DNA from: a virus
Taxonomy: Duplodnaviria; Caudoviricetes
DNA: 64,000 nt
IMG/VR virus record: IMGVR_UViG_3300027766_000001
Reading direction: 5' to 3' (one strand)
Shown: piece after piece, positions 2,791 to 56,459 of the stretch
Numbering within the stretch: the first letter of the stretch is position 1
Layout of the letters: every line of letters begins with the position of its first letter
Notes under the pieces: generated by a model
The model's input: the letters and a program-made list of their open reading frames with translations, nothing else
Told to the model about the DNA's origin: nothing
Database searches by the model: none
Translations under genes and position numbers: made by a program

Positions 2791-3399
2791 ATGTTCTACG
2801 GAATCATGTTCTATTTTGATCAACCGGTGAAGCGGCTTTGGTACGTCGCCTCCTCGCAAAACGGCGAAGAGAAGTGGGACACCTTGTACAAGTTTAGCAA
2901 GCAGTACCCCACAGGTGTACCAAACGAGATCTATAAACTGATGGCGGGTGAGCACCAGCATGCGCCAAAGGTAAAGATCTCCATGGAAAACACGTTCCTC
3001 ACCATCGAGGACGCGATTGCGCACATCAATGGCTTGATTGAACACGACATCAAAGGAATGCGTGTGGCTGGGTTGTCTGATGAACAAATCCAAACCAACA
3101 TCATTAACGTCGATGATGCGGTGCGTCGCATTCGCATGATGCGTTCTGCGGTGTCAGTCAATGCTGGGTTGTATTATGACCACGGTGTGACAGCTATTAC
3201 CGATGAAGCATGGGATAGCATGGCAAAACAGCTTTGCGACTATCAACAAACCCATGCGTATGCCTTACCATTTGTGAACTTCTTTGATAAAGAGTTTGCA
3301 GACTTCACGCCGGACACGGGTTTCCATTTACCGTATCGTAGTGAACCGATCTACAGCACGGTGTTGCGCGCCGTTGAGTTTCTGGCACAACGCAAATAG
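2791..3399 (+). CDS. Protein with a stand-alone NAD-ligase domain Ia-like C-terminal module
   Basis: GLYYDHGVTAITDEAWDSMAKQLCDYQQTH matches the LigA Ia pattern YY....P.ISD.EYD.L...L..LE..HP; no KxDG adenylation motif. Confidence 0.7.
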   Translation: MFYGIMFYFDQPVKRLWYVASSQNGEEKWDTLYKFSKQYPTGVPNEIYKLMAGEHQHAPKVKISMENTFLTIEDAIAHINGLIEHDIKGMRVAGLSDEQIQTNIINVDDAVRRIRMMRSAVSVNAGLYYDHGVTAITDEAWDSMAKQLCDYQQTHAYALPFVNFFDKEFADFTPDTGFHLPYRSEPIYSTVLRAVEFLAQRK

Positions 3400-12719: not shown

Positions 12720-12739
12720 AGATTTTAAACCTATATCAC
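12720..12739 (+). promoter_or_regulatory. Putative early (vRNAP) promoter
   Basis: AGATTTTAAACCTATATCAC, close to the phiKZ early consensus TATATTAC; sits at the head of a + strand block. Confidence 0.65.
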
Positions 12740-53895: not shown

Positions 53896-53917
53896 AGATT
53901 TTTGAACCCTATATCAC
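53896..53917 (+). promoter_or_regulatory. Putative early promoter
   Basis: AGATTTTTGAACCCTATATCAC, followed by a 14-bp palindrome at 53927-53940. Confidence 0.65.
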
Positions 53918-53975
53918 CCTAGTGTATTCTCTGCAGAGAACACTTTACGTATAAACCACATACCCCTTTATAAGG

Positions 53976-54434
53976 ATGCTCGACATGTCAAAAGAAATCA
54001 AAGCTACTACCCGTACCCTGGCTGACTCCCTGAAAGCAGCAATGACCATGGGCGAGAACGGCGTGGCTGTGACTGAACCGAACTGGTATGAAAATAACCT
54101 GCCAGAAGGTCTGACCATCGAACAGCGTAAAAAGTTCCAGAGCCATGACAGCGCCGTAATGGCTGCTCAGGCTGTGGCTCTCGGTGAACTGGGTCTGCCG
54201 GTGATGCAGAACAACACCGCGCTGTCGCAAATCTCTACGTCGCTGTCAGTGGGCTCGGACACCATTGCCACCGATATCGTGCGTGAATACCAGCACGGCA
54301 AACAGACCATCAACGGTCACGTCATCAGCTCCTACACGGCCAACGCCGCTGGTACGAACCGTGGCGAACTCGCTGCGGCCGTGAAGCACGTACGTGCAAT
54401 GGCTGACGACCTCCTGACCGGTGGTGCGAAGTAA
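53976..54434 (+). CDS. Hypothetical protein, probably highly expressed (start may be 53985)
   Basis: 152 aa, SD AAGGA, strong codon bias. Confidence 0.8.
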   Translation: MLDMSKEIKATTRTLADSLKAAMTMGENGVAVTEPNWYENNLPEGLTIEQRKKFQSHDSAVMAAQAVALGELGLPVMQNNTALSQISTSLSVGSDTIATDIVREYQHGKQTINGHVISSYTANAAGTNRGELAAAVKHVRAMADDLLTGGAK

Positions 54435-54452
54435 GTTTTACCCCGTAGTAAA

Positions 54453-54656
54453 CTGAGCGGCCTAGACACCCGCTCAGCCAAACACAATTCCATTTAACCC
54501 GCTTGGGTCAACTCGGGCTGTGTCCTGTAAGACATTCCAAAAATAGACAGTAATCTAAGGGCTGGTCCGGAAACCGGCTCTTATCTACTGTCGTATTTCG
54601 CGACAGTTTCAAAACCTTGCATTCAGAAAGAATGCCAATAGATAGGAAACTGAAAC
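54453..54656 (+). ncRNA. Structured intergenic/leader RNA candidate
   Basis: About 220 nt non-coding with several hairpins, two of them mutually exclusive, one pairing with the downstream SD. Confidence 0.4.
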
Positions 54657-55703
54657 ATGAAACTCAACTTAACTACTTCTCTGATCAAATCTCCAGCTAA
54701 CGAAAATCACTTCATCTGCACGCAGTATAAAGCAGAGTTTGAAGATGCATCGATGATGATCGTTGAATTGGTCTCAGAAGAGTACGACGAGAAACCAATT
54801 ACGTACGGCCTTGACTGTGACACTAATACGTTACACGGTGAATGGGTCGCGTGCTTTTATCCGCTTGGTGAAGATACACCTTACATGACCATCGGCATTG
54901 GTTCATCTGTAATGGCAACCCCGCTGGGTTATGCTGACCGTGCCCGTCTCGGCATCAACATCCTGGGTATGGAAGGCAATACCGAAGCCAATGCAGAACA
55001 TGCCGTGGTTCAGCAAGTGTTTCGTCAATTACTGACACCGCCTGGTGCACCTAGCTTGGCACACATCGTTATTGATGAACGTGTTAAAATGGCTGAGTGG
55101 ATGTTGTCAAAAGGACTGTACCGTGCAAACGGTGAAGTGAAGACACACTGCCGCGCATATGGTTGCGACTACAGCCGTATCTGGAAAATTGTTGATAACA
55201 CCATCATGGTTAAACAGACTCTGTTGAATATGGACGTGGGTAAGTCGCTTCGTCAGACCCGGATGTTTAAAGCTGATGAGCATATCGTCAGAACTTTCGA
55301 ACAAATAAAAACGGGTCAATACGCGTACATGACGACACAGTTCCAGCCACAGGAAACAGAATACCACTACGGTGATAAAGTTATTACCAATCAGCACCTG
55401 GTTCAACATGTAATGGCGTTTGATCGTGCTGGCTTCTCTCCGGCATTTATCAATCTTTTCATTGAAGAGTCTGAAGCGATTGCTGCGCAGAAACCTCAGC
55501 AACCAATGATGGGTGGGGTGAACCCTCCAATGTTTGGTCAGCAGTCAATGATGCCAACCGGCCACCCTGCAACAGATGCCGCCAACGGTATGCCGCATAT
55601 GGACCCTCAGGCGTATCATCAGCAGATGTGGTTCCATGCTCAAAATAACCAAAATTTCCCTACCGGTGGTAATTTAAACCCGTACACCGGTAAACAGTTT
55701 TAA
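54657..55703 (+). CDS. Hypothetical protein with Q/M/P/G/N-rich C-terminal low-complexity tail
   Basis: 348 aa, SD AGGA. Confidence 0.8.
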   Translation: MKLNLTTSLIKSPANENHFICTQYKAEFEDASMMIVELVSEEYDEKPITYGLDCDTNTLHGEWVACFYPLGEDTPYMTIGIGSSVMATPLGYADRARLGINILGMEGNTEANAEHAVVQQVFRQLLTPPGAPSLAHIVIDERVKMAEWMLSKGLYRANGEVKTHCRAYGCDYSRIWKIVDNTIMVKQTLLNMDVGKSLRQTRMFKADEHIVRTFEQIKTGQYAYMTTQFQPQETEYHYGDKVITNQHLVQHVMAFDRAGFSPAFINLFIEESEAIAAQKPQQPMMGGVNPPMFGQQSMMPTGHPATDAANGMPHMDPQAYHQQMWFHAQNNQNFPTGGNLNPYTGKQF

Positions 55704-55714
55704 TCACTAACCTG

Positions 55715-55740
55715 GAAGGGGCTTCGGCTCCTTCTTTTTT
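55715..55740 (+). terminator. Rho-independent terminator
   Basis: GAAGGGGC-TTCG-GCTCCTTC-T6. Confidence 0.85.
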
Positions 55741-55787
55741 ATAACCGTCCCATGGCCAAAAGTGCCATAAATAAAAGGATGATTACC

Positions 55788-56459
55788 ATGCAACAGATTA
55801 CCGTAAAAGCTGAACACCAAGAACACAACGGCATCCAGTATGTGAAGATGCTGGAAATCGAATTACCGGAATACCGTATCGGGGCGCGCTTACTGCGTCT
55901 TGAAGAAGACAGCACCAATACCACGTATGACGTGTGGATTGGACGTAACCAAAGAAAGATGGGTGAGAACGTCATCATTCGTGACTGGAGTATGCGCGGT
56001 GCGTATCGTCCGGTGGCCGGTGGCGACAAGCTGTTCAACCATCGTTCTAACTACGGTGCAACGCTGTACACACAAGGTAGCCCGTTCGCACACGAGTCTA
56101 CCTCACGGTTGATCTCAGCCATCTTTGATAACCTGCTGGGCACCTGTGATGTAGCCAATACGGACACCATCAGCGATTATGTCGGTGTGGCTGAGGCGAT
56201 GTATCAGGCACGTTTGGTAAACGGTATTGAGAACCAGTACCGGGCGTCGATCATGACACCGAATAAGAACATTACCGGCAGTCGTGTATGGCGTATTGAG
56301 CAAGATCAGTTTAAGTTCGATTCAACGGTTTGGACCTTTAATATTGATGGGCATAACCGCTTGACTCACCGTGACCATGCTCTGGGAACGACCTACAAAA
56401 AGGTTGTCGAGATCATGGCCAATAAAGCTGCTGCTGCCGTGAAAGGCTTAGCGGCATAA
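55788..56459 (+). CDS. Hypothetical protein
   Basis: SD AAGGA before ATG 55788 (track starts at 55752). Confidence 0.8.
   Translation: MQQITVKAEHQEHNGIQYVKMLEIELPEYRIGARLLRLEEDSTNTTYDVWIGRNQRKMGENVIIRDWSMRGAYRPVAGGDKLFNHRSNYGATLYTQGSPFAHESTSRLISAIFDNLLGTCDVANTDTISDYVGVAEAMYQARLVNGIENQYRASIMTPNKNITGSRVWRIEQDQFKFDSTVWTFNIDGHNRLTHRDHALGTTYKKVVEIMANKAAAAVKGLAA

Follow-up and report, generated by a model that had tools for sequence, protein, structure and literature searches.

Genomic context and transcription unit

The window, that is, the whole stretch of DNA that was analysed, comprises 64,000 nt of IMG/VR record IMGVR_UViG_3300027766_000001 (Duplodnaviria; Caudoviricetes), and all coordinates given here are window-based unless another sequence is named. 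The source phage is a nucleus-forming jumbo phage whose kin include the Erwinia Agricanvirus phages (Ea35-70, RAY, Simmy50, Desertfox, and AH06), Salmonella phage SA002, and Erwinia phage pEa_SNUABM_48. The gap studied here (54435-54656, 222 bases) lies between an upstream ORF of 152 aa (53976-54434, plus strand; phrog_9746) and a downstream ORF of 348 aa with a Q/M/P/N-rich tail (54657-55703, plus strand; phrog_11391), and ends with the Shine-Dalgarno sequence (SD) AGGA (54644-54647) that precedes the start codon of the 348-aa gene (54657-54659, plus strand). As had been noted in the original prediction, which was made from the letters of the window alone, it is among the longest gene-free gaps in the window; no plausible plus-strand ORF (none of at least 30 aa on that strand) was found in it.

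Upstream of the 152-aa gene, an early-promoter-type motif with the core CTATATCA, preceded by a T-run, is located at 53909-53916 (plus strand). The extended motif recurs on the plus strand at 12731, 15302, and 30914; all four sites are intergenic and share the same layout, namely a T-run, A(A/C)C, CTATAT(C/T)A, and GTG a few bases further on. The motif is kept upstream of the 152-aa gene in 7/7 relatives examined. Early motifs of jumbo-phage virion RNA polymerases are AT-rich and centred at about -10 (PMC7598289), and, judged by its sequence, the motif at 53909 fits this promoter type. Transcription of the unit to which the gap belongs likely starts here. The next plus-strand terminator after the gap is an intrinsic one that was identified by terminator scan at 55714-55735 and closes the unit, which thus reads, in order: early-promoter motif, 152-aa gene, gap, 348-aa gene, and terminator. 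With the early motif at one end and the terminator at the other, the gap thus separates the two cistrons of an early unit.

The 152-aa protein displays 48-95% identity in relatives, and is 48-51% identical across those lineages where the fast-evolving 348-aa protein retains 24-30% (SA002-type and Agricanvirus orthologues). The predicted fold of the 152-aa protein resembles solely uncharacterised proteins of phiKZ-type phages (Pseudomonas phages KTN4, Phabio, and Psa21) and of Ralstonia phage RSF1, which makes the gene older than the RNA element that follows it; no convincing PDB match was found for this protein. The 5' UTR of its gene (53917-53975) opens with a hairpin right after the early-promoter motif, and relatives carry a hairpin of different sequence at the corresponding position. 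The structure model of the 348-aa protein is of low confidence and too poor for structure search. Searches for the function of both flanking proteins (Pfam, PHROGs, ESM Atlas, Foldseek PDB, VIA-align, and BFVD) returned just uncharacterised phage proteins or weak matches, and neither family nor fold searches found a recognisable RNA-binding fold in either of them. The 348-aa ORF and the ORF at 55752-56459 both match phrog_11391 and thus are tandem paralogues. The Q/M/P/N-rich tail of the first paralogue is probably disordered, and is replaced by other low-complexity sequence in the Agricanvirus orthologues.

Comparative sample and calculations

We compared 16 sequences from about nine lineages, drawn from annotated phages, IMG/VR, and metagenome contigs. 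These are Erwinia/Salmonella jumbo phages, namely Agricanvirus, SA002-like phages, and metagenomic relatives; in RAY, the orthologous gap is located at about 140,312-140,570. A metagenome scan contributed lineage L023 and three Agricanvirus-like contigs, and two further pattern scans of viral contigs for more lineages yielded chance matches and known loci, nothing else. The lineages form few deep clades, and many of the covariation counts reported below trace to few events. H1 and P1 (see below) were counted by script, MAFFT alignment having failed to register either of them structurally. All energies are nearest-neighbour predictions at 37 °C. Sites were called as terminators when a GC-rich hairpin was followed by TTAT(G/T)YYG or a U-tract.

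Some existing gene annotations in the relatives are probably in error. AH06_183 (57 aa; phage AH06, 1469-1642 of L003) is annotated across covarying RNA helices, and Desertfox gp175 (1630-1828 of L004) is annotated 66 codons short of the conserved start, in spite of a conserved N-terminus and a frame that stays open from 1630.

The gap encodes a conserved RNA structure

The minimum free energy (MFE) of the gap is -71.6 kcal/mol, as compared with -50.7 +/- 4.3 kcal/mol in 200 dinucleotide shuffles (z = -4.9), none of which reached as low a value. Used alone as a nucleotide query, the gap retrieves 18 phage records at 73-78% identity, and in those same phages the downstream coding region is undetectable by nucleotide search. 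The common architecture, 5' to 3', consists of hairpin H1, a lineage-specific stretch with small hairpins, a conserved block, the bipartite hairpin P1/P2, hairpin P3, a short C-rich stretch that ends in CCU, and hairpin P4 followed by CAAT, the SD, and the start codon; P2, P3, and P4 are included in the RNAalifold consensus. Every stem listed in the original prediction (54546-54552/54586-54592, 54556-54566/54573-54583, 54588-54593/54601-54606, 54619-54635, and 54453-54477) can be read directly in the sequence. The helices include G-U pairs and can therefore form on the plus (sense) strand only. That the gap encodes a functional structured cis-RNA of some kind is, in our judgement, very probable.

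A search for a known RNA family (riboswitch, leader, sRNA, or ribozyme) in Rfam, which had been suggested with the original prediction, identified none: Rfam 15 cmscan at E values up to 10 gave no match to the element across 53900-55000, its two hits being chance matches of snoRNA type that lie outside the element and score far under the gathering thresholds. The gap RNA is a new, unannotated motif of a familiar kind, either a phage cis-regulatory leader or an intercistronic element.

H1 and the AGACA block

H1 is a perfect 8-bp hairpin located 19 nt past the upstream stop codon (54453-54477, plus strand), with AGACA in its 9-nt loop. Seven unrelated stem sequences of 8-11 bp occur at this place in the relatives, all of them paired and some with G-U pairs, around a conserved loop of 9-11 nt. 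Further downstream lies a conserved, mostly unpaired block (54528-54555, plus strand) in which two AGACA copies (54530-54534 and 54545-54549) flank an A-run; the 3' end of the block doubles as the 5' strand of P1. AGACA is found 2-3 times per gap in every lineage, as against 0.2-0.55 expected (a 5- to 10-fold enrichment), at the same three places in every gap, and its TAG/TAAG variant is identical between H1 loop and block within each lineage. An antisense or kissing partner for the H1 loop was sought in RAY and SA002, where an 8-9-nt complement was found nowhere else than in H1 itself.

The H1 covariance model, the block pattern, and the P4 pattern each give one match per genome in four relatives (RAY, SA002, SNUABM48, and SNUABM54) and one in the 64-kb window; a second H1-like match in SNUABM48 is weak and lies inside coding sequence. 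As all elements are single-copy, their signals are specific to one gene and not of the generic promoter or terminator kind, and a generic phage signal was rejected on this ground. A host sigma-70 promoter in the block was likewise considered and rejected, with at most 7/12 matches in the window, a worse fit in Agricanvirus, and no site flagged by the scan.

P1, P2, and P3

P1 (54546-54552 with 54586-54592) encloses P2 (54556-54566 with 54573-54583), and together they form, in the window, an 18-bp bipartite hairpin (54546-54592, plus strand) of 7 + 11 bp with a 3x2 internal loop and a 6-nt apical loop; the corresponding helices of Agricanvirus have 9 + 11 bp. Covariation is strong in P2, where 98% of cells are paired, both sides have changed in 7/11 pairs, about 20% of pairs are G-U, and the covariation score is reached by 0/500 shuffles. 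When the partner strand is slid as a control, pairing falls to 34-51%. P1 retains 4-7 contiguous pairs in 9/9 lineages, with compensatory changes in SNUABM48 (G-C to A-U) and L010.

P3 is an 8-bp hairpin (54587-54594 with 54600-54607, plus strand) that is present, with 5-10 bp and compensatory changes, in 8/9 gene-bearing lineages. P1 draws its 3' arm and P3 its 5' arm from a shared strand (54587-54592), and the two helices are therefore mutually exclusive; L023 lacks this overlap. In folds of the leader that extend as far as P3, the two lie no more than 2 kcal/mol apart in 8/9 lineages, and the shared strand is occupied by P1 with a probability of 0.18-0.70 and by P3 with a probability of 0.07-0.79. 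In L010, both partner strands have changed so as to match a change in the shared strand, and this double compensation, read from sequence, is the best single evidence that P1 and P3 both matter. The original prediction held that the leader has two mutually exclusive states; exclusive folds of comparable stability are seen with P1 and P3, and not with the pair of states that it had named (see below).

The P1/P2 helix also bears on the possibility that the gap is a processing or stability element, an explanation that we consider unlikely, if worth taking seriously. RNase E would cut the A/U-rich block, or RNase III the 18-20-bp P1/P2, whereupon the 3' hairpins would cap the upstream message and a 5' hairpin the downstream one, and the cistrons would differ in half-life or translation rate, as they do after such processing in the early mRNAs of T7 and T4. 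The P1+P2 stack of 18-20 bp, with its conserved 2-3-nt internal loop and intercistronic position, has the geometry of an RNase III site (about 20 bp of helix and a small internal loop), and stable hairpins stand on either side of the conserved unpaired A-rich block. Survival of the 5' half after loss of the downstream gene, described below, would fit a 3'-end stabiliser of the upstream message. General RNases, however, need neither invariant loops nor a 21-nt invariant P4 with tail, and processing leaves both the P1/P3 competition and the H1 loop unexplained.

P4, P5, and the ribosome site

P4 is a 6-bp hairpin with a 5-nt loop and a CAAT tail (54619-54639, plus strand). The hairpin proper (17 nt, 54619-54635) ends 8 nt before the SD and the tail 5 nt before it, and a CCU or CCCU is found 1-3 nt upstream of P4 in every lineage. 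P4 and its tail are identical in 15/16 sequences (8/9 lineages), even though the protein encoded behind them is only 24-30% identical. The exception is L023, in which one C-G pair has become U-A by compensatory change and the loop measures 6 nt instead of 5. P4 occurs once per genome and is, as would be expected of an operator, a sequence-specific and gene-specific hairpin beside a ribosome binding site.

The gap could also be read at the level of DNA, with a middle-type promoter in the block, an operator at the perfect palindrome of P4, or some other protein-binding DNA site. Both block and P4 are conserved as sequence and not by covariation, and middle promoters in these phages are not predictable (PMC7598289). 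We nevertheless regard a DNA-level signal as very improbable, given that no early (CTATAT-type) or late (TATG) promoter motif was found in the window gap, that block and P4 each occur once per genome, that the adjoining helices include G-U pairs which can form on the plus strand only, and that the spacing of the P4 half-sites differs by one base in L023. Growth of a loop from 5 to 6 nt would be better tolerated by an RNA hairpin than by a dimeric DNA operator.

In the predicted MFE structure of the window, P4 is enclosed by a 7-bp helix, P5 (54604-54610 with 54646-54652; 54604-54652, plus strand), which covers the last two SD bases and the spacer and takes part of the 3' arm of P3. The full-length leader of the window is accordingly predicted as P1+P2+P4+P5. 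The partition function gives P5 a probability of about 0.99 in the window and 0.94 in L010, with a lower value for SA002; Agricanvirus and L023 do not have the helix. Equilibrium models leave the ribosome site only half occluded (0.44-0.69 unpaired). When the ribosome site is blocked in such models, P1 shifts to P3 in the window and L010; in Agricanvirus and L023, blocking the 5' strand of P1 drives P3, and the accessibility of the ribosome site barely moves. Coupling of P1/P3 to opening of the ribosome site is thus strong, according to the thermodynamic models, in the window/L010 subclade only and weak elsewhere. On the strength of these models, a P1/P3 switch is plausible, its output being putative.

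The original prediction had assigned control of the SD to a different pair of folds, switched by ligand, temperature, protein, or antisense RNA. In its state A, P1 and P2 form and the SD is free; P1+P2 do belong to the predicted optimum, but the SD is not free, as P5 covers its 3' half and the spacer with a probability of about 0.99. In its state B, an anti-SD strand (54579-54587) pairs with the SD region (54639-54647) over 9 bp with one G-U. This complementarity is present in the window sequence and, at -12.0 kcal/mol, is equalled by 4% of shuffled SD regions and beats the other 96%, and a weaker 6-bp form of it occurs in Agricanvirus. State B nevertheless has essentially zero weight in the partition function, because the covarying 11-bp P2 would have to open. 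Across the other eight lineages (L023, SA002, L010, and five of Agricanvirus) the cognate duplexes are no better than shuffles: they reach -4 to -8 kcal/mol, 27-86% of shuffled SD regions do equally well, and cross-lineage pairs score as well as cognate ones. The covariation that had been called for among related phages was found as compensatory changes in P2, P1, and P3, whereas the SD/anti-SD pairing was not kept. Being unconserved, dependent on melting of P2, and devoid of partition-function weight, state B was rejected as a conserved mechanism, and with no riboswitch match in Rfam either, the A/B switch is highly unlikely to operate here. What survives of the proposed switch-like leader is a structured, selected RNA with mutually exclusive helices directly before the ribosome site.

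Lineages without the 348-aa gene and a distant relative

The 348-aa gene is lacking in L016 (IMG/VR contig 3300011242_000002) and in SNUABM48 (L001, pEa_SNUABM_48/37), both of which keep H1, block, and P1/P2 intact. Alignment of L016:2620-2700 and L001:3210-3300 with window 54594-55735 reveals that the P3 loop runs straight into a terminator near-identical to 55714-55735, and the gene after this terminator is the orthologue of the window's next gene. The 5' half has been kept after the regulated gene was lost and therefore may serve the upstream gene or act alone; alternatively, the losses may be recent, L016 and L010 differing by one base in the retained part. The deletions start at almost the same point of the P3 loop and end at the terminator, which suggests a recombination-prone cassette boundary.

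In these two genomes a canonical terminator thus follows within about 15 nt of P1/P2, an arrangement that lends some support to a leaky terminator or attenuator in the gap, whereby P2 or P3 with a U-rich tail would stop part of early transcription, leaving a UTR-derived small RNA and less read-through into the 348-aa gene. Other points in its favour are that P2 of Simmy50, and of that phage only, passes the terminator scan with its tail, that a short U-run follows P3 in the window clade, and that phiKZ possesses 17 candidate 5'UTR-residing RNAs and conditional termination (PMC10914365). In the window, however, H1, P2, and P3 all fail the terminator scan, which flagged no site in 54435-54656 and did flag 55714-55735; the usual terminators of this genome carry a TTATGCCG-type tail, of which the gap has none; P3 of Agricanvirus has no U-tract; and the covariation of P1 needs an RNA that reaches past P2. 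We therefore hold attenuation to be distinctly unlikely.

The more distant SNUABM54 (L021, pEa_SNUABM_54) has a structured gap of 334 nt (2892-3225, z = -4.3) with an H1-type hairpin whose loop is unchanged, a sequence resembling the block, and a P4-like hairpin that ends in the same CCAATAGA tail, in an order that differs from that of the window. This gap precedes a weak, distant homologue of the 348-aa gene (phrog_11391-like).

Proposed function and significance

The gap is probably a gene-specific, sense-strand cis-regulatory RNA that is read by a protein, the mechanism set out here being a proposal. Our preferred reading, to which we assign a probability of roughly 0.35-0.4, is protein-mediated translational control of the 348-aa gene, with P1/P3 as a conformational element. 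The loops and strands are invariant, occur once per genome, and lie against the ribosome site, all of which speaks for a specific factor in preference to general RNases or polymerases. In such a scheme, the multi-helix RNA (H1, AGACA block, P1/P2, P3, and P4) within the early two-gene mRNA would set the output of the 348-aa protein, and a specific RNA-binding protein would read AGACA, both in the loop of H1 and on the 5' strand of P1, together with the invariant P4 beside the SD. In the simplest case this candidate reader would be a product of its own operon, or else another early phage protein. Bound to P4, with CCU upstream and AGG downstream, it could close or open the ribosome site; bound to the 5' strand of P1, it could tip the balance from P1 to P3. 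P1, P3, and P5 may act as a relay in the subclade of the window: with P1 formed, the 3' strand of P3 would be free to pair with the SD spacer (P5), and with P3 formed, the ribosome site would be released. Counting against this reading, neither flanking protein has a recognisable RNA-binding fold, the models leave the ribosome site only half occluded, a block of the 5' strand of P1 changes the accessibility of the site little in most lineages, L023 lacks the P1/P3 overlap, the 5' half outlasts the 348-aa gene in L016 and SNUABM48, and the lineages fall into few deep clades.

An element of the same parts could also serve as a bistable sensor, a reading that strikes us as quite improbable. Here a trans factor, either an early phage protein or one of the host, would read AGACA, which is displayed in the loop of H1 and either buried or accessible on the P1 strand, and flip P1 to P3, thereby timing the early message. 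If true, the sensor would time expression, stability, or localisation of that message as the early vesicle stage gives way to the phage nucleus, and would found a new class of riboregulators, confined to nucleus-forming jumbo phages, that respond to a protein and carry a distal 'decoy' hairpin.

Nucleus-forming jumbo phages rely on polymerases of their own and must export mRNA through a protein shell, and their post-transcriptional regulation is almost unexplored. An RNA of roughly 200 nt that is kept helix by helix in Erwinia and Salmonella phages while the flanking proteins drift to 24-50% identity indicates strong and specific constraint on one early operon. The element offers a defined, mutable target in growable phages (RAY, Ea35-70, and SA002), could enter Rfam as a new phage cis-regulatory motif, and may point to an RNA-binding protein. 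As evidence of a conserved RNA structure the finding is solid, whereas what it reveals about mechanism is modest.

Comparison with known regulatory RNAs

Several known systems share individual features with the gap element. In trp-type attenuators, helices 1:2, 2:3, and 3:4 form a chain; P1, P3, and P5 of the window subclade likewise share strands in a chain, the last helix of which touches an expression signal. Unlike those attenuators, the gap has no leader peptide, its last helix is not a terminator, and the chain is incomplete in Agricanvirus and L023. The nut sites of lambdoid phages, composed of a boxB hairpin and a linear boxA, resemble H1 and the block in that a variable stem carries a fixed loop and adjoins a conserved linear element in an early transcript. 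They act on the host RNA polymerase via N and Nus factors. PhiKZ-type phages, in contrast, transcribe with their own polymerases (PMC7598289). Besides this difference of phage versus host polymerase, the loop of H1 is 9-11 nt as opposed to a pentaloop, and the order of the elements differs.

The processing hairpins R0.3-R1.3, at which RNase III cleaves the early transcripts of T7, are intercistronic like the gap element and, like it, form roughly 20 bp of helix broken by a small internal loop; after cleavage the hairpin remains part of one product, as it would in the gap if cleavage, here putative, occurs. The T7 hairpins are defined by structure and not by invariant sequence, and the competing P3 of the gap has no counterpart in T7.

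For phiKZ, short RNAs residing in 5' UTRs have been described along with conditional terminators, their starts and ends having been mapped (Putzeys et al. 2024, PMC10914365). Those RNAs and the gap element alike are structured, genus-conserved, intergenic, and non-coding, belong to phage-polymerase units of nucleus-forming jumbo phages, and have a proposed regulatory role. They differ in that the phiKZ RNAs are defined by mapped ends and the gap element is known from sequence alone, in that the two share no sequence similarity, and in that the gap element lies between the two cistrons of an early unit, its window copy having no recognisable terminator.

Translational operators of T4 (the gene 32 pseudoknot, the gene 43 hairpin, and the RegA sites) and the coat-protein hairpins of RNA phages provide the remaining comparison. 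Like these, P4 is a small hairpin with a specific loop and stem, immediately before or over the SD, in one gene-specific copy, to which a phage protein, putative in the case of the gap element, is expected to bind and set translation. The gap element differs from them in being larger, with five helices over about 200 nt, and in combining its SD-proximal hairpin with a bistable helix pair and a distant hairpin that shares the motif of the P1 strand.
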